DNA from: Halioglobus sp.
GTDB taxonomy: Bacteria > Pseudomonadota > Gammaproteobacteria > Pseudomonadales > Halieaceae
DNA length: 64,000 bases
Assembly (NCBI GenBank): GCA_029287595.1
Contig: JARFQU010000035.1
Location: 88-64,087, forward strand
Direction: 5' to 3'
Shown piece by piece: positions 19,241-28,929 of this stretch. Below the pieces are notes generated by a model. That model was given only the letters and a program-made list of their open reading frames with translations. It did no database searches and was not told where the DNA came from. How positions within the stretch are numbered: position 1 is the stretch's first letter; every line of letters begins with the position of its first letter. The position numbers and the translations under genes are program-made.

Positions 19241-20974
19241 GTGCAGAAAATCATTCGCAGGCGCGACCCCGTCACCACCGAGCTGTCGGATGGGTCCTCT
19301 GTTCATCCCCTGCTCGCGCGGGTGTACGCCGGTCGCGGCGTGAGCTGCGCCGAACAGTTAAACCTCGCTTTGGATCAGTTACTACCGCCCGAGGGCCTGC
19401 TCAACGCGCACTTGGCGGCTGCACTGCTTGCCGACGCGCTGGCAGGCGATAAGAAAATACTGGTGGTTGGCGATTTTGATGCCGACGGCGCAACCAGTAC
19501 CACCCTGGCGGTAAGCGCGTTGCGGGCATTCGGTGCCGCCCGGGTCGATTTCCTGGTTCCCAATCGCTTTGAATACGGCTATGGGCTGACGCCGGAAATT
19601 GTGGCCCTGGCGGCTCGGGAGCAACCGGACCTCATTATCACGGTGGACAATGGCATCTCCAGCCTGGAGGGGGTGGAGGCGGCCCGCGAGCTGGGTATCG
19701 CCACGCTGATAACCGATCACCACCTGGCCGGGCGCGAATTGCCGCAGGCGGATGTCATTGTCAATCCCAACCAACCTGGCTGTACCTTCGCCAGTAAGAA
19801 CCTGGCGGGTGTGGGAGTGATCTTCTACGTCATGCTGGCGCTGCGCGCCGAGCTGCGCTCGCGCAACTGGTTTGACTCACGTCCCCAGGTCAACCTCGGC
19901 CACTACCTGGACCTGGTGGCGCTGGGTACCGTGGCTGATGTGGTACCCCTGGACTACAACAATCGCATATTGGTCGCCGCGGGACTGGCGCGTATTCGCG
20001 CCGGCCAGGCCCGCCCCGGAATTCACGCACTGCTGGAAGTGGGCTCGCGGCCCTACCGCTCCGTGGTGGCGTCCGATCTGGGCTTTGCCGTTGGCCCGCG
20101 CATTAATGCGGCGGGTCGATTGGAGGACATGTCCATCGGCATTGGCTGCTTGCTCAGCGAAGATATGGCCGAGGCCGCTGCTCTGGCCGGGCGCTTGCAA
20201 CAACTCAACCTGGACCGCCGGGTGATTGAGCAAGGCATGCAGGATGAGGCTTTGCAAATACTTGCAAAGCTGCCACTGCAGGCGGAACAGGAGCCGCCGC
20301 TGGCCATGACTCTGTACCAGAGTGGTTGGCACCAGGGTGTTATCGGTATACTGGCATCGCGTATCAAGGACCGCCTGCACCGCCCTGTAATCGCTTTTGC
20401 CGATGGCGACCCGGGTCAGATCAAGGGATCCGCACGTTCCATTCCCGGCATTCATATCCGCGACATTCTCGATGCAGTCGCCACCCGGCATCCGGGATTG
20501 ATCAGCAAATTCGGTGGCCATGCCATGGCGGCGGGATTGACCCTGCCGCTGGAAGCCTACGATGCTTTCGCCACAGCCTTCACCGAGGAGGTCGCCCGGC
20601 ATGCGCAGGACGTGGAGTTACAGGCGGTGATTGCTTCCGATGGAGAACTGTCGGAAAGGGATTTCCAGCTCGAGCTGGCCAATGAGTTGCGCTACGCCGG
20701 TCCCTGGGGACAGCACTTTCCCGAGCCGGTATTCGACGGCCGCTTCACGATTGTCAGCCAGCGGCTGGTGGGGGAGAAACACCTCAAGCTGGTACTCTCG
20801 CCCCCGGGCAGTGCCCGGGTACTGGATGCTATCGCGTTCAATGTGGATCTCGATATCTGGCCCGACCAGGCCATCGAGCAAATCGACATTGCCTACCGCC
20901 TGGACGTGAACGAATTTCGCGGTCAGCGGACGGTGCAACTGGTGGTTGAGCACCTGGTTCCAGTTCGCTCCTAG
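19241..20974 (+). CDS. recJ: Single-stranded-DNA-specific exonuclease RecJ
   Basis: DHH motifs VGDFDADGATS, TVDNG and ITDHH, plus DHHA1 GGHAMAAG. GTG start. The N-terminus aligns with E. coli RecJ (LLARVYAGRGV). Confidence 0.95.
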   Translation: MQKIIRRRDPVTTELSDGSSVHPLLARVYAGRGVSCAEQLNLALDQLLPPEGLLNAHLAAALLADALAGDKKILVVGDFDADGATSTTLAVSALRAFGAARVDFLVPNRFEYGYGLTPEIVALAAREQPDLIITVDNGISSLEGVEAARELGIATLITDHHLAGRELPQADVIVNPNQPGCTFASKNLAGVGVIFYVMLALRAELRSRNWFDSRPQVNLGHYLDLVALGTVADVVPLDYNNRILVAAGLARIRAGQARPGIHALLEVGSRPYRSVVASDLGFAVGPRINAAGRLEDMSIGIGCLLSEDMAEAAALAGRLQQLNLDRRVIEQGMQDEALQILAKLPLQAEQEPPLAMTLYQSGWHQGVIGILASRIKDRLHRPVIAFADGDPGQIKGSARSIPGIHIRDILDAVATRHPGLISKFGGHAMAAGLTLPLEAYDAFATAFTEEVARHAQDVELQAVIASDGELSERDFQLELANELRYAGPWGQHFPEPVFDGRFTIVSQRLVGEKHLKLVLSPPGSARVLDAIAFNVDLDIWPDQAIEQIDIAYRLDVNEFRGQRTVQLVVEHLVPVRS

Positions 20975-21070
20975 CGGTTCCGGGTGGGAAGGTATTGTTC
21001 AGTCTAGCGGTTCCGGGTGGGACAGTGTTTTTCAGTCTAGCGGTCCCGCGCGGGAAAGTGTTTCTCAGTC
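20972..21070 (+). repeat. Three tandem 33-bp direct repeats, the first beginning at the recJ stop codon
   Basis: Units: tagcggttccgggtgggaaggtattgttcagtc / tagcggttccgggtgggacagtgtttttcagtc / tagcggtcccgcgcgggaaagtgtttctcagtc. Each starts with TAG in the recJ frame, since 33 = 11 codons. Confidence 0.9.
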
Positions 21071-21286: not shown

Positions 21287-21299
21287 GCTGGCCGACACC

Positions 21300-21335
21300 A
21301 AACCCAAATCCAAACCCAAACCCAAACCCAAAACC
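21300..21335. repeat. Hexanucleotide microsatellite (AAACCC)n, six units
   Basis: aaaccc aaatcc aaaccc aaaccc aaaccc aaaacc, read directly. Confidence 0.9.
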
Positions 21336-21501
21336 AGAAAGCATCCAATAACAGAATATTTCTATAATTGCCCGAGCACCCCGTAGTCAGACAATAGAAA
21401 TGAAACACATAGCGATATGCCTGGCAGCGGGAAAATGACGCGTTTCCTAACTGCCGCGGCTACGGTAAAATGCGCGGCTTTTCACGGAACTGGCCAGACA
21501 G

Positions 21502-22600
21502 ATGCTCGAGATAAACCCGCTGCTTAACACACTCAAGGACATAGAGGCGCGTACTGACGTGCTTAGGGGGTATCTTTGACTTCGATAATCGCAAAGAGCG
21601 CCTCGCCGAGGTAGAGCTGGAGCTGGCTGAACCCAGCGTCTGGGATGATCCCGAGCGGGCCCAGGAGCTGGGGCGCGAGCGCTCATCCCTGGAAGCTATC
21701 GTCCACACCATAGAAAAGCTCGATATCGGCAGGGCGGATGCCAGCGACCTGCTGGAGATGGCGGCAGCGGAGGACGATGAAGCCACGGTGGAGGAAATCC
21801 AGGCGGAGGTAGATGGCCTGGTGGTGCAACTGGAGCAGTTGGAATTCCGCCGTATGTTCAACGGCGAGATGGATGCCAACAACGCCTTCCTCGACATACA
21901 GTCGGGCTCCGGTGGTACCGAGGCCCAGGACTGGGCAGAGATGTTGCTGCGTATGTACCTGCGCTGGGGAGAGGCCAGGGGGTTCAAGACCGAACTGATC
22001 GAATGTTCCGGTGGTGACGTAGCGGGCATCAAAAGCGCCACTATCAAGTTCGAGGGTGAGTATGCCTTTGGCTGGCTGCGCACCGAGACCGGTGTGCACC
22101 GCCTGGTGCGCAAGTCGCCCTTTGACTCCGGCAATCGTCGCCATACCTCCTTTGCCTCGGTGTTCGTGGCCCCGGAGATCGATGACAATATCGAGATAGA
22201 CATCAACCCGGCGGACCTGCGGGTGGATACCTACCGCGCCAGCGGCGCCGGTGGCCAGCACGTGAACAAGACCGACTCTGCGGTGCGCCTGACCCACAAC
22301 CCCAGCGGCATCGTGGTGCAGTGCCAGACCGAGCGCTCCCAGCATCAGAACCGGGACAATGCCATGAAGCTGTTGCGCGCCAAGTTATACGAGATGGAAA
22401 TTCTCAAGCGCAACGTGGAAAAACAGGCGATGGAAGACAGCAAGGCCGATATCGGCTGGGGCAGCCAGATCCGCTCCTACGTGCTGGATGCTTCGCGCAT
22501 CAAGGATTTGCGCACCAATGTCGAAACCAGCAACACCCAGGCGGTGCTGGATGGGAGTATTGATCAGTTTATCGAGGCCTCGCTGAAAAGCGGGCTGTAA
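21502..22600 (+). CDS. prfB: Peptide chain release factor 2 (requires programmed +1 frameshift at 21574-21580)
   Basis: ORF0 is [25 protein letters not shown] followed by TGA. The +1 frame continues [34 protein letters not shown]... into track ORF 21758..22600. SPF motif ([15 protein letters not shown]) and GGQ motif (SGAGGQHVN) are present. Confidence 0.95.
21562..21580 (+). promoter_or_regulatory. prfB: RF2 autoregulatory +1 frameshift site
   Basis: CTT AGG GGG TAT CTT TGA C: an internal SD-like AGGGGG, 3-nt spacer, slippery CUU and an in-frame UGA followed by C. This is identical in form to the E. coli prfB site. Confidence 0.92.
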
Positions 22601-24109: not shown

Positions 24110-24196
24110 GGCATCTCGCCACGCCCCTGGCAGGGTGCGCAATGCGCTGTGAATGCGCTACACTCCGGTGAGCATAACTGCCGAGGAAGTACGCTG

Positions 24197-24772
24197 TTGC
24201 CAGCCATTAGAACAAATGCCTTAGCCACTGCCGGCCTGCTGGTGTTGCTGCAGGCCTGTAGCTCAACCCCAGCGACGCAGCAGTCCGCAGCTGAGTCCGC
24301 ACCCGAAGCAGTGCCCGAGCTAACCTTGAACCTGCCTGAACAGGCTCAGGATTGTGCCTGTGTGGTTACCGAGGAAGCGGATTACACGTTCCTCGACAAA
24401 GGCTTCAATGCCCTGGTTGCCGGTGATCATATTGAGGCGGTGCAGTACTTCCAGCGTTACCAGCGACTTGAGTCGTCCCCCCAGGCAAACTGGGAGGCCG
24501 GTATCGCGATCGCCTATGACAGTATGTTGCCTGACAGCCCTTTTTACGACCCGGCGGCGGCGCGCACTGCCTATGGCAATCTCAAGGACCAACAGGTTGG
24601 GGGCGTGCCCATACACACCAAGGCCCTGATGATGCGTGATGCCCTGGAGACCTTCGTCGCCATGGAGCAACAGATCAGCGATCTGAAAAGTGATAATGCC
24701 CTGCTCAGGCAAGACCTGGAAAAACGCGAGGAGGCGCTCAAACGCCTGCGAGAGCTAACTCTGGGTCAGTAG
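24197..24772 (+). CDS. Hypothetical lipoprotein with C-terminal coiled coil
   Basis: Lipobox LLQAC after a hydrophobic stretch (PAIRTNALATAGLLVLLQAC). GAGGA sits at 24183-24187, so TTG 24197 or CTG 24194 is preferred over the track's GTG 24149. The C-terminus QQISDLKSDNALLRQDLEKREEALKRLRE is coiled-coil-like. No family recognised. Confidence 0.55.
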   Translation: MPAIRTNALATAGLLVLLQACSSTPATQQSAAESAPEAVPELTLNLPEQAQDCACVVTEEADYTFLDKGFNALVAGDHIEAVQYFQRYQRLESSPQANWEAGIAIAYDSMLPDSPFYDPAAARTAYGNLKDQQVGGVPIHTKALMMRDALETFVAMEQQISDLKSDNALLRQDLEKREEALKRLRELTLGQ

Positions 24773-26267
24773 GCAGCACCACCTTGAAAGTGGAGCCCTC
24801 ACCGGCAGCACTCTCCACCTGGATAGTGCCGCCCATCAGGTCGCAGTAATCCCGGCAGATAGCCAGTCCCAGTCCAGTGCCGCCATAGTTCGCGCTGGTG
24901 GAGACTTCGGCTTGCACGAAGGCCTCGAACACCCGTAGCTGTTGATCCTCGTTCATGCCTATGCCGGTATCGCGCACGGAAAACTCAACCCAGCCGGGAC
25001 GTTCTGCCAGCGGTCGGGCAGAAACACTGATGTAACCGTTTTCAGTAAACTTGCAGGCATTGCTCAACAGGTTGGTAAAAATCTGGCGGAATTTGGTAGC
25101 GTCGTTATACAGGGTAGGCAGGTGGCTGAAGTCGGATATTGCCAGCTCGTTGTTATTGTCGCGCAGCAGGGGTGCCAGCGCCTCGCACACCCCGGTGAGT
25201 ATCGCCCCTGGCTGGAACGTTTCACAGTGCAGGGACATTTTCCCCGTTTCGATCTTCGACAGGTCCAGAATGTCATTGATCAATGCCAGCAATTGACGCC
25301 CTGACATGATGATTTTTTCCAGATCGGTCTGGAACTGCTTGCGGTCCACTTGCTGTGGGTCGGTGAGTTCATCGTGCAGCATTTCACTGTAGCCGATGAT
25401 GGCATTCAACGGTGTGCGCAACTCGTGGCTGACGTTGGCCAGGAAAATACTCTTGGCGGCATTGGCCTCGTCGGCAGTGTCCCTGGCCTTGCTCACGTCG
25501 TAGATGGCGTTGCGCAACTTGTCGGACATGTCGTTGAATGCCTGGGCCAGGTCCCCCAGTTCGCCCGTGTCATCGATATTGTCGATGCGGTAGTTGAGGT
25601 CGCCGCTGCCAAAACGCTGGGTGCCGGTCTTCAGTCGCTTCAGCGAGGTATTGGTATAGCGCACCAGGAAAAACCCCAGGCTGGCAGTGAGGAAGATAGA
25701 TGCCAGGAAGCCGATCACCGTGATGCGATCGGTCAGGGCGATGGTGCGATCGATGATGTTGGCACGTTGTCCGGCGATAAAAGCCTGGCGCTGCTCCAGT
25801 TCCTGTAATCGTTGACTGGCTTCCAGGTAGGGCAGGGGATTATCCATGTCCATCTGCAGTTCGGGGTTGTTGTAGCCGCGATAGAAGGTCAGCCAGTCCT
25901 CCAGCAGCTTGCTGGAGCTGTCCCACAGCTGTTCGTAGTGCAGCTCGGTGACACTGTGGCTCAGTTTTCCCAGCTTCTCGATCTTGTTGATGATCCCGGA
26001 GATTTGTTGCTCGGCCTGCCGCAACTCGTCCCCGTCCAACTGGTCATCGGTGGACTCGCGCAGGGTTGACAGTACCAGGATCTGCTGGCGCTGGTCCTCT
26101 AGCAGTTGTTCGACTTCGGTAGACAGCTGTGCAGCGTCGACTGAATTACGGTAGGCGATCATGCTCTGGTTTCGCGCATAACTGCCCCAGAAATGGGTGC
26201 CCACGTTGCCCGCGAACAGAACCAGGATAGTGACCAGAGACAGGGTGAGTCGGCGTCGTAGACTCAT
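24738..26267 (-). CDS. Sensor histidine kinase (TM - helical periplasmic domain - TM - HAMP - HisKA - HATPase_c)
   Basis: H-box FLANVSHELRTPLNAIIGYSEML, N-box FTNLLSNACKF, G-boxes RDTGIGM and GGTGLGLAI. A HAMP-like GDLNYRIDNIDDTGELGDLAQAFNDM follows the second TM (ITVIGFLASIFLTASLGFFLV). Confidence 0.9.
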   Translation of the reverse strand: MSLRRRLTLSLVTILVLFAGNVGTHFWGSYARNQSMIAYRNSVDAAQLSTEVEQLLEDQRQQILVLSTLRESTDDQLDGDELRQAEQQISGIINKIEKLGKLSHSVTELHYEQLWDSSSKLLEDWLTFYRGYNNPELQMDMDNPLPYLEASQRLQELEQRQAFIAGQRANIIDRTIALTDRITVIGFLASIFLTASLGFFLVRYTNTSLKRLKTGTQRFGSGDLNYRIDNIDDTGELGDLAQAFNDMSDKLRNAIYDVSKARDTADEANAAKSIFLANVSHELRTPLNAIIGYSEMLHDELTDPQQVDRKQFQTDLEKIIMSGRQLLALINDILDLSKIETGKMSLHCETFQPGAILTGVCEALAPLLRDNNNELAISDFSHLPTLYNDATKFRQIFTNLLSNACKFTENGYISVSARPLAERPGWVEFSVRDTGIGMNEDQQLRVFEAFVQAEVSTSANYGGTGLGLAICRDYCDLMGGTIQVESAAGEGSTFKVVLPTDPELALAGV

Positions 26268-26638
26268 GCGCGGGAGAGTTTCTCGATTTTGATCAGCAAA
26301 CCGGGAAAATCAACGGGCTTGGTCGCATAGTCATCGCAGCCCGCTTGCAGTGCGTTGAGGCGGTCTGACTCCATGGCGTGCGCGGTCAGCGCGATAATCG
26401 GAATATGGCTGATACGCGGGTCCTCGCGGGCGCGGCGGCAGGCGGTCCAGCCATCCAGCACAGGCAGGTTCATATCCATCAATACCACGCGAGGTTGTTC
26501 GCTGACCATGGCATCCAGTGCCTGTTGCCCGTCTCCCGCGACAATGACCTCCACGCCGGCCCGGTTCAGTCGCCGTACCAGCATATCGCGGTTGAGTTCA
26601 TTGTCCTCGACCAGCAGTACCGGCGCCTGATTGGTCAC
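26264..26638 (-). CDS. Single-domain response regulator (receiver only)
   Basis: 124 aa: LLVEDNELNRD, phospho-acceptor context VVLMDMNLPVLDG, ALTAHA and YATKP. GTG start overlaps the cyclase stop (GTGA), and its stop overlaps the HK start (ATGA). Confidence 0.9.
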   Translation of the reverse strand: MTNQAPVLLVEDNELNRDMLVRRLNRAGVEVIVAGDGQQALDAMVSEQPRVVLMDMNLPVLDGWTACRRAREDPRISHIPIIALTAHAMESDRLNALQAGCDDYATKPVDFPGLLIKIEKLSRA

Positions 26639-28080
26639 AAGGCGCTCCCCAGTATCTGGTGCACCACGATGGACTCTTCTATGCCTTTCACCTTGAGCTC
26701 CTGGCAGTCGCCAACCAGAAAATCGCCCTTGAGGCTTTGCAGGGTGCTGTCGGACACCAGGATTCCGCCCCCGGCAGTGAGATCCTCTATGCGCGAGGTC
26801 ACATTCATGGCGTGACCGACAAAGCCGTATTTGCTGCGTCTTTCCGACCCTATATTGCCGGCGATGACGTCGCCCGTGTTGAGGGCTATCCCTGTCTTGA
26901 TTACCGGCAGGCCCTCGGCCTCATTGACTTCATTAATCTGGGCCATGGCAGCCTGCATCTCCAGGGCGCAGGAAACCGCCCGGTCGGCATCGTCGTCGCG
27001 ATGTTGGGGTGCGCCGAACACCGCGAGTATGGCGTCCCCGATAAACTCATCTATGGTGCCCTGGTGGGCCATGATGATGTCGGTCATGGCGCCCAGGTAA
27101 CGATTCAGCATGGTGACTACCTGGGCTGGTGCCAGGTGCTCACTGAGGGTGGTGAAACCGCGGATGTCTGACATCATGATGGTGACCCGGCGCAGATCGC
27201 CACCCAGCTCCAGGCCCTCGGGTCGTTCCAGTATGTCGGTGACGATTTCGTCGGACAGGTAGCGGCCGAAGGTGGCGCGGATGAATTTTTCGTTGCGCTC
27301 CAGCTGCTGCCGATACTGCTCTTCGCGATCGTGCCACCGCTTGCGCTCTATGCCGGCCTTGATACGCGCCTGCAGTAGTACCTGGTTGAAGGGTTTGAAC
27401 AGGTAGTCGTCGGCGCCGGCCTCAATGCACTCTATGATGCCGTCCATGTCCTGTTGACCGGAAATCACGATTACCGGGGTGGCCCGCCAATCCGGATGCT
27501 CCTTGATGCGGCGCAATACCTCCCGTCCGTCCATCCCCGGCATCAGCAGGTCCAGCAGTACCACGTCCACATCGCTTTGTTCCAGTGCGCGCAAGGCTTC
27601 CTCGCCGCTGGCAGCAGTAACCACGAAGTGACCGATGCGCGACAGGTTGCGGGCTACCAGCTCACGGTTTTCCTTCAGGTCGTCTACAGCCAGGATATAG
27701 CCCGGTTCGGATTCGATAACGCGCTTATCGCCGGAGTCACGCGACTTTCCGCTTCCGGGCTGGGCGGATTGCAGGGCCTTGAGCAGTCGGGCTAGGCTGT
27801 CACTGAGCTGGACCTGTTGCGCATCGAGATCTTCCTGCAGCAGTTCTGCGTAGCCGCGTATTGCGGCAAAAATGTTCATCAGGTCGTGGTTGTCGATATC
27901 CGCAGTCGCGCGCGCCAGCATCGCCTCCAGCCGGTTGCCGCCTTCGAACAGGCGGGAGAAATCCTCCAGGGACTCGGCGGGCAGGTGCTCCTGTGTGGCG
28001 GCAAAGGTGTCACGCAGTTCTACCAGTGCCCGGAGCAGGAGATCGCTCGATTGCGTGATGGTATGGTTACTGCCGGTCAC
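26635..28080 (-). CDS. H-box(DHp-like)/receiver/class III nucleotidyl cyclase fusion, predicted guanylate-cyclase-type specificity
   Basis: 481 aa. Residues ~55-105 carry an H-box-like HDLMNIFAAIRGYAELL (His65, 27886-27888). The REC domain has ILAVDD, VVLLDLLMPGMDG, VISG and YLFKP. The cyclase domain has metal Asps in MSDIRGFT and IGDAIL and transition-state N/R in AMNVTSR. Specificity positions are Glu345 (27046-27048, DEFIGD) and Gly419 (26824-26826, KYGFVG). Confidence 0.88.
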   Translation of the reverse strand: MTGSNHTITQSSDLLLRALVELRDTFAATQEHLPAESLEDFSRLFEGGNRLEAMLARATADIDNHDLMNIFAAIRGYAELLQEDLDAQQVQLSDSLARLLKALQSAQPGSGKSRDSGDKRVIESEPGYILAVDDLKENRELVARNLSRIGHFVVTAASGEEALRALEQSDVDVVLLDLLMPGMDGREVLRRIKEHPDWRATPVIVISGQQDMDGIIECIEAGADDYLFKPFNQVLLQARIKAGIERKRWHDREEQYRQQLERNEKFIRATFGRYLSDEIVTDILERPEGLELGGDLRRVTIMMSDIRGFTTLSEHLAPAQVVTMLNRYLGAMTDIIMAHQGTIDEFIGDAILAVFGAPQHRDDDADRAVSCALEMQAAMAQINEVNEAEGLPVIKTGIALNTGDVIAGNIGSERRSKYGFVGHAMNVTSRIEDLTAGGGILVSDSTLQSLKGDFLVGDCQELKVKGIEESIVVHQILGSAL

Positions 28081-28281
28081 GGTAGTGGAGTGTCCTTTCG
28101 GTGTTGTTATGGCGTTCCTCAGAGTATAACGAGGGCGGTGCCTGTGTGGAAACGCGGATTTTGCGTACTTTCGTGAAAGAAGCAGACCAAATTTGCTCTC
28201 AGAGGTGCGATTTTACAAAAGTTTAGGTTAGTATTATCGTCATAGCGTCAGTGATAGGGCTAACAAGGGTCGGGTGAATTA

Positions 28282-28929
28282 ATGTTAGAGCAAGTTGAAA
28301 TATTCCAGGGTCTGTCACAGGAAGAACTGGAGGCGCTGTCCGCCAGCAGTACCAGTCGCTCGTTTCCCAAAAATACGGTGGTAATTCATGAGAATGACCC
28401 CGCCGATTCGCTGTTCGTGATTGAGAGTGGCAAGGTCAAGGTCTACTGCAGCGACAAGAATGGCAAGGAGTTCATTATGAACACCCAGGGCGCCGGGGAT
28501 TATTTTGGCGAGCTGGCCCTGTTGGATGACTCCACCCGCTCGGCTTCGGTGCGCACGGTGGAGAAGTGTTCTTTCTGTATTATCTACAAGGAAGATTTCA
28601 ACCGCGTACTGGATGAGCACCCCAATATCGGCCGCCAGCTGGTGCGCAATCTGGCACAGCGCGTGCGCAAGCTCACCGCCGATGTGAAGAGTCTCGCGCT
28701 GCAGGACGTCTATGGCCGCGTGGCCAATGTGTTGATGGACCTGTCGGAAGAGCGCGGTGACGGCACGCTCTATATCCCAGAGAAATTGACCCAGCAGGAT
28801 ATAGCCGACCGCGTGGGTGCGTCCCGCGAGATGGTGGCGCGCATTCTCAAGGACCTGACCATCGGCGAATATATCCGCTTTGAGGGTCGCCACATCATTA
28901 TTAACACCCGCTTGCCCGCCAAGTACTGA
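28282..28929 (+). CDS. Crp/Fnr family cyclic-nucleotide-binding transcriptional regulator
   Basis: cNMP pocket motif FGELALLDDSTRSASV and a C-terminal HTH QQDIADRVGASREMVARILKDL that aligns with CRP [22 protein letters not shown]. It has no N-terminal Cys cluster, so it is not FNR-like. Confidence 0.9.
   Translation: MLEQVEIFQGLSQEELEALSASSTSRSFPKNTVVIHENDPADSLFVIESGKVKVYCSDKNGKEFIMNTQGAGDYFGELALLDDSTRSASVRTVEKCSFCIIYKEDFNRVLDEHPNIGRQLVRNLAQRVRKLTADVKSLALQDVYGRVANVLMDLSEERGDGTLYIPEKLTQQDIADRVGASREMVARILKDLTIGEYIRFEGRHIIINTRLPAKY

Follow-up and report, generated by a model that had tools for sequence, protein, structure and literature searches.

To our knowledge, cGMP signalling in bacteria has been shown experimentally in a handful of organisms, namely Synechocystis, Rhodospirillum centenum, Xanthomonas and, in part, Sinorhizobium. 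Here we describe a four-gene locus of Halioglobus sp. (Gammaproteobacteria; Halieaceae), found at positions 24738-28929 of a 64,000-nucleotide stretch of contig JARFQU010000035.1 (assembly GCA_029287595.1), hereafter the window; it consists of an operon for a class III nucleotide cyclase, a stand-alone receiver and a histidine kinase, and of a divergent gene for a CRP/FNR-family regulator. Judged from its sequence, this locus would encode a phosphorelay-controlled guanylate cyclase together with a dedicated CRP-family receptor, conserved in marine gammaproteobacteria of the Cellvibrionales type, among them Halieaceae (the OM60/NOR5 clade) throughout and the BD1-7 clade, a reading of the whole chain that we regard as moderately probable.

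Cya2 of Synechocystis is a membrane protein with an extracellular sensor of the CHASE2 type and has neither a receiver nor a DHp domain. The Halioglobus cyclase resembles it (structure 2W01) in the two metal-binding Asp residues, in the Asn/Arg pair, in the substrate pocket (the Glu/Gly pair and the Lys that precedes the Gly by two positions) and in the segment ahead of the catalytic core; unlike Cya2, it is soluble, without any membrane segment, is built as DHp-receiver-cyclase with a predicted drive by phosphotransfer, and has a CRP-family partner gene, where no dedicated cGMP receptor is known for Cya2 (PMC10187061). Its different domain architecture thus makes it a relative of Cya2 at the level of the catalytic domain only.

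In R. centenum, a source of cGMP (GcyA/GcyB/GcyC) is genetically linked to a CRP-family factor with cGMP as its ligand, CgrA (PMC4681086, PMC10187061), as is predicted here. There, however, cgrA is co-directional with gcyB and gcyC, the non-catalytic subunits are annotated as hypothetical, and histidine kinase, receiver and DHp domain are all missing; CgrA has a Thr/Ser pair in the C-helix and an Arg-Thr phosphate cassette, where the window regulator has Leu/Thr and Arg-Ser, and R. centenum belongs to the Alphaproteobacteria, the window host to the Gammaproteobacteria. In the XC_0250/XC_0249 pair of Xanthomonas campestris, a gammaproteobacterial class III guanylate cyclase gene likewise adjoins the gene of a cNMP-domain effector (PMC3770947), but the cyclase is fused to tetratricopeptide repeats, and its effector, instead of being a CRP that binds DNA, is a diguanylate cyclase of the cNMP-GGDEF kind; guanine is read there by an Asn/Glu pair that the window system lacks.

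A class III cyclase switched by an adjacent receiver that is fed by a histidine kinase is found in 2c-Cyclop of green algae and in cyanobacterial enzymes of the CyaC type; the product of 2c-Cyclop is cGMP, and it provides the precedent for a guanylate cyclase controlled by receiver phosphorylation, with the phospho-Asp form active (PMC6284317). It is, however, a single eukaryotic polypeptide (rhodopsin-histidine kinase-receiver-guanylate cyclase) with simple His-Asp transfer, whereas the parts in the window are spread over three genes and include a fused DHp domain; CyaC, deposited as an adenylate cyclase, differs in having Lys/Thr at the specificity columns. Spo0B and ChpT are DHp-type phosphotransferases that occur as separate proteins and retain a degenerate ATPase-like domain. 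Like these, the window protein has a DHp-like hairpin whose His is conserved and which lacks a working ATPase domain; such a hairpin could shuttle phosphate between receivers. Unlike in these, it forms one polypeptide with the terminal receiver and the enzyme and stands immediately in front of them. Relative to Cya2, CgrA, XC_0250/XC_0249 and 2c-Cyclop, the cassette is not a new category.

Architecture of the locus

The gene structure of the locus, its domains, the identities and conservation of its residues and its genomic linkage are direct observations. The four genes, as given by open reading frames and Pfam, are:

26635-28080, minus strand: cyclase gene, first in the operon; a DHp-receiver-cyclase protein of 481 aa, predicted guanylate cyclase
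26264-26638, minus strand: stand-alone receiver gene, second in the operon; 124 aa, with Asp55
24738-26267, minus strand: membrane histidine kinase gene, third in the operon; 509 aa
28282-28929, plus strand: divergent CRP/FNR-family regulator gene; 215 aa, predicted cGMP-responsive transcription factor

An earlier note on this DNA, made from the letters alone, had described three translationally coupled minus-strand genes, and direct reading gives the same: a GTGA overlap at 26635-26638 joins the stop of the cyclase gene to the start of the receiver gene, and an ATGA overlap at 26264-26267 joins the stop of the receiver gene to the start of the kinase gene. The divergence of the Crp-family gene across a 201-bp spacer (28081-28281) also stands. 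The presentation of the operon as kinase, receiver and receiver/cyclase is right in its gene content and reversed in its order, as transcription runs from the cyclase through the receiver to the kinase.

The catalytic domain and its substrate pocket

The residues that bear on the choice of substrate lie in the C-terminal domain of the cyclase protein:

26653-27189, minus strand: class III cyclase catalytic domain, residues 298-476 (Pfam PF00211 and Cya2 alignment)
27046-27048, 26830-26832 and 26824-26826, minus strand: codons of the base-specifying residues Glu345, Lys417 and Gly419, respectively, all identical to Cya2

Over residues 298-476 this domain scores 97.7 bits with PF00211 (Guanylate_cyc; cut-off 21.9, E 8e-28), and its best solved relative is Cya2 (2W01), to which phmmer aligns 188 residues (291-478) without a gap, at 47% identity and an E-value of 4e-53. 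The motifs MSDIRGFT (D305), EFIGD (E345, D349), KYGFVG (G419) and AMNVTSR (N426, R430) are all present; the metal-binding residues Asp305 and Asp349 and the transition-state residues Asn426 and Arg430, which had been reported as retained, are the same as in Cya2 and are invariant in 63 orthologues; they are the set that a catalytically competent homodimer requires. The assignment of Glu345 and Gly419 to the specificity positions, likewise proposed before, is borne out by the gapless alignment, in which Cya2 has E and G in the same columns. At exactly the Glu column, the engineered adenylate cyclase 6FHT, which is derived from Cya2, has Lys, and the adenylate cyclases CyaB (3R5G) and CyaC (1WC0) show Lys and Asp-x-Thr at the specificity columns of the same alignment. 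The photoactivated adenylate cyclase bPAC is turned into a guanylate cyclase, bPGC, by K197E/D265K/T267G (PMC4569695), and the triad E345 ... K417-Y-G419 reproduces precisely these three substitutions. It is invariant in the 63 genome-derived orthologues and reads E-K-G in 67 of 67 metagenome orthologues, about 130 proteins together. That the catalytic domain selects GTP and makes cGMP, as the earlier note had proposed from the Glu/Gly pair, is a strong prediction, as strong as sequence allows, and we grade it above the chain as a whole.

The main rival explanation, which we consider unlikely, is a cAMP or mixed cAMP/cGMP system, in which the cyclase mainly makes cAMP and the regulator serves the lineage as its general receptor for cAMP, functionally in the place of Vfr/CRP. 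On the side of the cyclase, the invariance of Glu/Lys/Gly, the Glu-to-Lys exchange needed to turn Cya2 into an adenylate cyclase (2W01 against 6FHT) and the Lys and Asp-x-Thr of bacterial adenylate cyclases all speak against it. Two points detract from the prediction of cGMP, the first of which also favours a contribution of cAMP: engineered bPGC, which carries Glu/Lys/Gly, still yields some cAMP (PMC4569695), and Cya2 is the one natural enzyme with a known activity behind the link from Glu/Gly to GTP, which otherwise depends on engineered ones.

How common this pocket is can be read from an exhaustive search of 1.84 billion representative proteins, of which the best 150 clusters were read. 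Among these nearest clusters, the specificity pair is Glu/Gly in 99, Glu/Ala in 16, Glu/Ser in 7 and Glu/Thr in 3, with Lys at the first position in only 7; an N-terminal H-box is seen in about 35. Predicted receiver-guanylate cyclases of the Glu/Gly type are widespread in sequence space, and with 99 of 150 clusters of this kind the module is less exceptional than the earlier note had implied. No experimentally characterised member was found in the receiver-cyclase clade. A cCMP/cUMP cyclase of the Pycsar type was considered and rejected: the protein is a close relative of Cya2, has a purine-type pocket and two-component and CRP neighbours, and is accompanied by no defence effectors.

A predicted four-step relay onto the cyclase

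Upstream of the catalytic domain, the cyclase protein is composed of three further segments:

27721-27948, minus strand: DHp-like (HisKA-type) helical domain without an ATPase domain, residues ~45-120 (profile match)
27361-27696, minus strand: receiver domain, residues 129-240 (Pfam PF00072, E 6e-28)
27190-27360, minus strand: helical linker and cyclase-transducer-like segment, residues 241-297 (...RKRWHDREEQY...FIRATFGRYLSDEIV)

The first of these had been overlooked in the earlier note; an N-terminal DHp domain with an invariant His65 suggests wiring more elaborate than a kinase-to-receiver step. Its H-box is NHDLMNIFAAIRGYAELL, with the His65 codon at 27886-27888. The Pfam HisKA model detects it weakly (E 1e-3), and HisKA is a precomputed annotation for many orthologues; when 24 diverse homologues are combined into a profile, that profile finds the DHp domain of Thermotoga HK853 (4JAS) with an E-value of 1e-10 and brings the phospho-His residues into alignment. 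The second segment and the small 124-aa protein, which consists of a Response_reg domain alone, are both receivers above the Pfam cut-off (97.8 and 90.4 bits); in each, the phospho-acceptor Asp (Asp177 and Asp55, respectively), the Ser/Thr and the Lys can be read in the sequence and are conserved. The predicted phospho-acceptor of the cyclase receiver, Asp177, has its codon at 27550-27552 and lies in the conserved motif VVLLDLLMPGMDG.

The kinase has two transmembrane segments around a helical periplasmic domain of ~150 aa, followed by HAMP, HisKA and HATPase_c domains (54.9, 74.4 and 100.5 bits, all over the Pfam cut-offs); its H-box is SHELRTPL, with His281, and it is not a hybrid kinase. 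The periplasmic sensor domain matches no Pfam family in a scan to E 10 and no PDB sequence in a profile search; the two yielded nothing but noise (TarH, E ~2).

Taken together, these domain and residue readings mean that the operon supplies exactly one residue for each position of a His-Asp-His-Asp relay, His281 as His1, Asp55 as Asp1, His65 as His2 and Asp177 as Asp2, and then the enzyme. We infer a four-step relay ending on the cyclase as the most likely route, with phosphotransfer by His65 as its predicted central step.

A plain two-component pathway, in which the kinase would phosphorylate Asp177 directly, the small receiver would act as a sink or competing branch and the DHp domain would serve in dimerisation or as a phosphatase only, is plausible but not probable. 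Single-domain receivers are well known as phosphate sinks; dimerisation is obligatory for class III cyclases and is what a DHp hairpin provides, so that the domain could be there for dimerisation or docking alone, or could act as a phosphatase, each of which would take away from the relay. The H-box in the window (NHDLMN) is moreover more divergent than in many homologues, and its Pfam score is weak. Set against this are the invariance of His65, which holds in the 63 orthologues and in each of the 24 diverse homologues that were aligned, the textbook H-box RHDLRTPLNQIIGYSE in many relatives, and the exact complement of His1, Asp1, His2 and Asp2 in the gene set.

The stand-alone receiver gene adjoins the DHp-receiver-cyclase gene in the window and in 6 of 7 distant contexts (directly downstream in five, on the opposite strand in one, with none in the seventh), and a receiver-cyclase context that gives no DHp match has no stand-alone receiver either. 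In one distant locus (L075, 4037-6334), a DHp-receiver-cyclase gene and a stand-alone receiver gene are followed by a PAS-rich hybrid kinase in place of the HAMP kinase, and no CRP gene adjoins them; the core of cyclase and receiver seems to serve with more than one kind of sensor.

The stretch from the receiver to the catalytic domain (residues 241-297) is nearly invariant in the 63 orthologues, and within it residues 267-290 can be aligned with the part of 6FHT just ahead of the catalytic core of Cya2. We take this linker to be a putative transducer element; its near-invariance and this alignment fit a helical element that transmits the signal.

The CRP-family regulator

The divergent gene product exceeds the Pfam cut-offs for cNMP_binding (94.7 bits, E 3e-27) and HTH_Crp_2 (47.5 bits). 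It has the phosphate-binding residues G76-E77 and R86-S87, L131-T132 in the C-helix, and the recognition helix R182-E183-M-V-A-R187, all of which are invariant across four lineages, with three further lineages 63-72% identical. It reaches 135.4 bits with the CRP/Vfr equivalog model NF008732 (NCBIfam), for which the cut-off is 266, and shares just 33% identity with E. coli CAP; in phmmer comparisons, mycobacterial Rv3676 and corynebacterial GlxR come out ahead of CAP and Vfr. By these scores, the regulator is not a CAP/Vfr equivalog. Clr (7PZA) is a weaker match (E 2e-21) than CAP or Rv3676.

It is the most conserved gene of the block: across Halieaceae (loci L001-L066) it is 87-98% identical, against 82-94% for guaB, and it exceeds all of the flanking genes guaB, guaA, lysS and prfB. 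Such figures indicate a constraint that is very strong, of the kind expected for a pleiotropic regulator. Further arguments for the cAMP system discussed above lie here. Such conservation, above that of guaB, guaA and lysS, is expected of a global regulator and would fit a general cAMP regulator equally well; the canonical Glu...Arg-Ser contacts to the cyclic nucleotide and the CAP-like R-E-x-x-x-R helix are kept; and searches with home-made HMMs for both domains find no further CNB or cyclase gene in the window. The score far under the equivalog cut-off, the low identity to CAP and the Leu at the position of the adenine-contacting Thr127 argue in the other direction.

CAP Thr127/Ser128 align to Leu131/Thr132, as the earlier note had placed them, and Leu occupies the Thr127 position in all four lineages. 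CAP T127L is reportedly activated by cGMP, a result that goes back to Gorshkova et al. (1995) and Moore et al. (1996). CAP T127I combined with Q170K is a cGMP-activated CRP* (PMC6603298), and T127L and T127I recur among CRP* alleles (PMC2743635; PMC6603298; PMC11445507). By analogy, the Leu may be a hint that the ligand is cGMP, as may the linkage of the gene to a Glu/Gly cyclase. The cautious earlier wording, that Leu/Thr is compatible with an altered preference, was apt, but the pair gives a hint only. Among CRP proteins no sequence signature separates cGMP from cAMP receptors, the cGMP-specific CgrA keeps Thr/Ser at the C-helix pair, and some Gram-positive CRPs have Leu at the first position of the pair (PMC10187061); the cGMP-responsive CRPs CgrA and Clr both keep Thr at the CAP-127 position, so that Leu131 is no guide to which ligand is bound, and what it signals might be a relaxed ligand requirement.

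A proposed path from periplasmic cue to transcription

In the chain that we propose, the membrane kinase would sense a periplasmic cue through its helical sensor domain, which belongs to no known family, and autophosphorylate His281. The phosphoryl group would then pass from His281 to Asp55 of the stand-alone receiver, on to His65 and finally to Asp177. Phosphorylation of Asp177 would act through the helical linker on the dimeric class III domain, whose Glu345/Lys417/Gly419 pocket would select GTP for conversion to cGMP. The cGMP would bind the CRP-family protein, which keeps the ribose-phosphate contacts Glu77 and Arg86-Ser87 and has Leu131-Thr132 at the adenine contacts of CAP, and the regulator would change transcription at sites read by its CAP-like R-E-x-x-x-R recognition helix. 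In this scheme we infer activation by phosphorylation, cGMP as the ligand of the CRP-family protein, and the regulon.

A wider form of this proposal, which we advance tentatively and which is doubtful as it stands, is that the most conserved CRP-family global regulator of Halieaceae/OM60-NOR5 and the BD1-7 clade uses cGMP, not cAMP, supplied by a split-relay guanylate cyclase, with the Leu at CAP Thr127 as part of the ligand switch. If that were true, cGMP would be a primary second messenger across a bacterial lineage and no curiosity, and the relay, with its second histidine module fused to the output enzyme, would be an unusual one.

The divergent spacer

Within the spacer, a consensus scan gives one promoter-like site for each direction, with the function of both predicted:

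28123-28152, minus strand: promoter-like site of the cyclase operon; TTTCCA/TCCACA, spacer of 16-18 nt, -10 element TATACT
28212-28240, plus strand: promoter-like site of the CRP-like gene; TTTACA-N17-TATCGT

Both coincide with conserved blocks in an alignment of 61 spacers. An operator for the regulator is a different matter. The CAP-type pattern TGTGA-N6-TCACA, allowing at most two mismatches, is matched 21 times in the window against 21.5 expected; its sole match in the spacer (28250-28265) is not conserved among the 61 aligned spacers, and the spacers of distant lineages have no palindrome in common. Autoregulation through a CAP-type operator was considered and set aside on these grounds, and we claim no operator. 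That autoregulation is thus unsupported counts against the proposed circuit; the R. centenum promoter, by contrast, has a perfect TGTGA-N6-TCACA, where none is conserved in the window spacer.

Between the two promoter-like sites, at 28184-28199, lies an imperfect 16-nt palindrome, AGACCAAATTTGCTCT, which is weakly conserved in the spacer alignment.

Conservation and linkage

Gene order was read wherever the DNA reaches that far, in a set of ~66 genome loci and in 80 metagenome loci, the latter all Halieaceae-like (regulator 89-99% identical) and used for linkage counts only. The order prfB-lysS-orf-HK-REC-cyclase / CRP / xseA / guaB-guaA, in which HK and REC are the kinase and the stand-alone receiver, is conserved in the ~66 genome loci, with cyclase orthologues 58-97% identical across Halieaceae; homologues carry the names Halioglobus, Haliea and Halieaceae, which places the window in that family. 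Divergence of the CRP-like gene and the cyclase operon is seen in all genome loci with DNA on that side (60 of 66) and in 73 of the 75 metagenome loci with at least 700 nt upstream of the CRP-like gene; in the two exceptions, the sequence on the cyclase side is only ~700 nt long. The same arrangement is found in genomes of the BD1-7 clade, where the cyclase is 49% identical and the protein cluster includes marine gamma proteobacterium HTCC2143, and in another gammaproteobacterial metagenome-assembled genome, with 48% identity in the cyclase and 71% in the regulator. In one locus (L076), all four genes stand side by side in surroundings unrelated to these, flanked by rapA and by the gene of a Na/Ca exchanger. 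The four genes thus co-occur in relatives, a point that the earlier note had left to comparison, and synteny conserved in Halieaceae, in BD1-7, in the metagenome-assembled genome and in L076 makes the cassette an ancient functional unit; by this comparison, its gene order goes back to an ancestor of two families or more.

The block had been described as inserted between lysS and xseA, which is correct as a position but not as an event. Its G+C content and skew are unremarkable, and these, together with the ancient synteny, rule out a recent horizontal insertion.

This linkage also bears on a further explanation, namely that cGMP is made but the CRP-like protein is not its receptor, the genes being neighbours by inherited order and the regulator having another ligand or none. 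A single family in fact supplies most of the linkage evidence, and its synteny is near-perfect across more than 12 kb, unrelated housekeeping genes included; several of the more distant DHp-receiver-cyclase genes have no CRP neighbour, which goes against a general pairing and makes it specific to the sub-clade around the window locus; the shared spacer shows no operator for the regulator; and aliphatic residues at CAP position 127 lead to ligand-independent CRP* behaviour (PMC2743635). We nevertheless hold this explanation to be quite improbable, as the four genes occur together in the wholly different neighbourhood of L076, the divergent pairing is kept where the cyclase is down to 47-49% and the regulator to 63-72% identity, and the residues of the regulator that bind the cNMP phosphate are invariant across lineages. 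The regulator as cGMP receptor remains the reading that we prefer.

Implications

Halieaceae are abundant and cosmopolitan in coastal seawater and respond to phytoplankton blooms (PMC10100682); a literature search found no paper that links them with CRP or cyclases. If the proposed chain is true, Halieaceae and the BD1-7 clade would have cGMP signalling as a core trait that is inherited vertically, in the form of a compact and self-contained path that leads from an input via a phosphorelay and cGMP to a transcription factor and in which every step is directly testable. The DHp-receiver-cyclase protein would represent a new way to wire a multistep phosphorelay to an enzyme output. The regulator would be a natural cGMP-responsive CRP for studying the discrimination between cGMP and cAMP, which a 2023 review lists as still open (PMC10187061), and the pair would offer synthetic biology a cGMP sensor and generator orthogonal to cAMP.

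Neighbouring genes and other observations

Between lysS and the kinase gene, an open reading frame of 207 aa (24149-24772, plus strand) runs convergently and overlaps the 3' end of the kinase gene by 35 bp. It has a possible lipoprotein signal (LLVLLQAC), a coiled-coil-like C-terminus and no family match; it is syntenic in Halieaceae at 32-76% identity and missing from the BD1-7 loci (L079/L080). Its opposite strand, poor conservation, absence from BD1-7 and lack of a family match led us to treat it as a neighbour only and not as a member of the system.

Upstream of prfB, CTTTGAC occurs at 21574-21580, ~180 nt before the first in-frame start of the open reading frame (21758-22600), and fits the classic programmed +1 frameshift site of this gene; the RF2 product as called in the related locus L079 has 364 aa. 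The gap upstream of prfB, where G+C falls to 0.51, also contains three copies of a 33-bp unit with 86% matches (20971-21070) and 6.5 copies of the hexamer CCAAAC (21298-21336), which may be intergenic repeats of the REP-like kind.

Beyond guaA, related loci carry a phage-type integrase gene and an AlpA-like gene (L080, 494-1687), or genes for a ParE toxin, an HTH protein and a Gp49-like protein (L073, 1-1080); the end of the guaBA block may thus be an integration hotspot.

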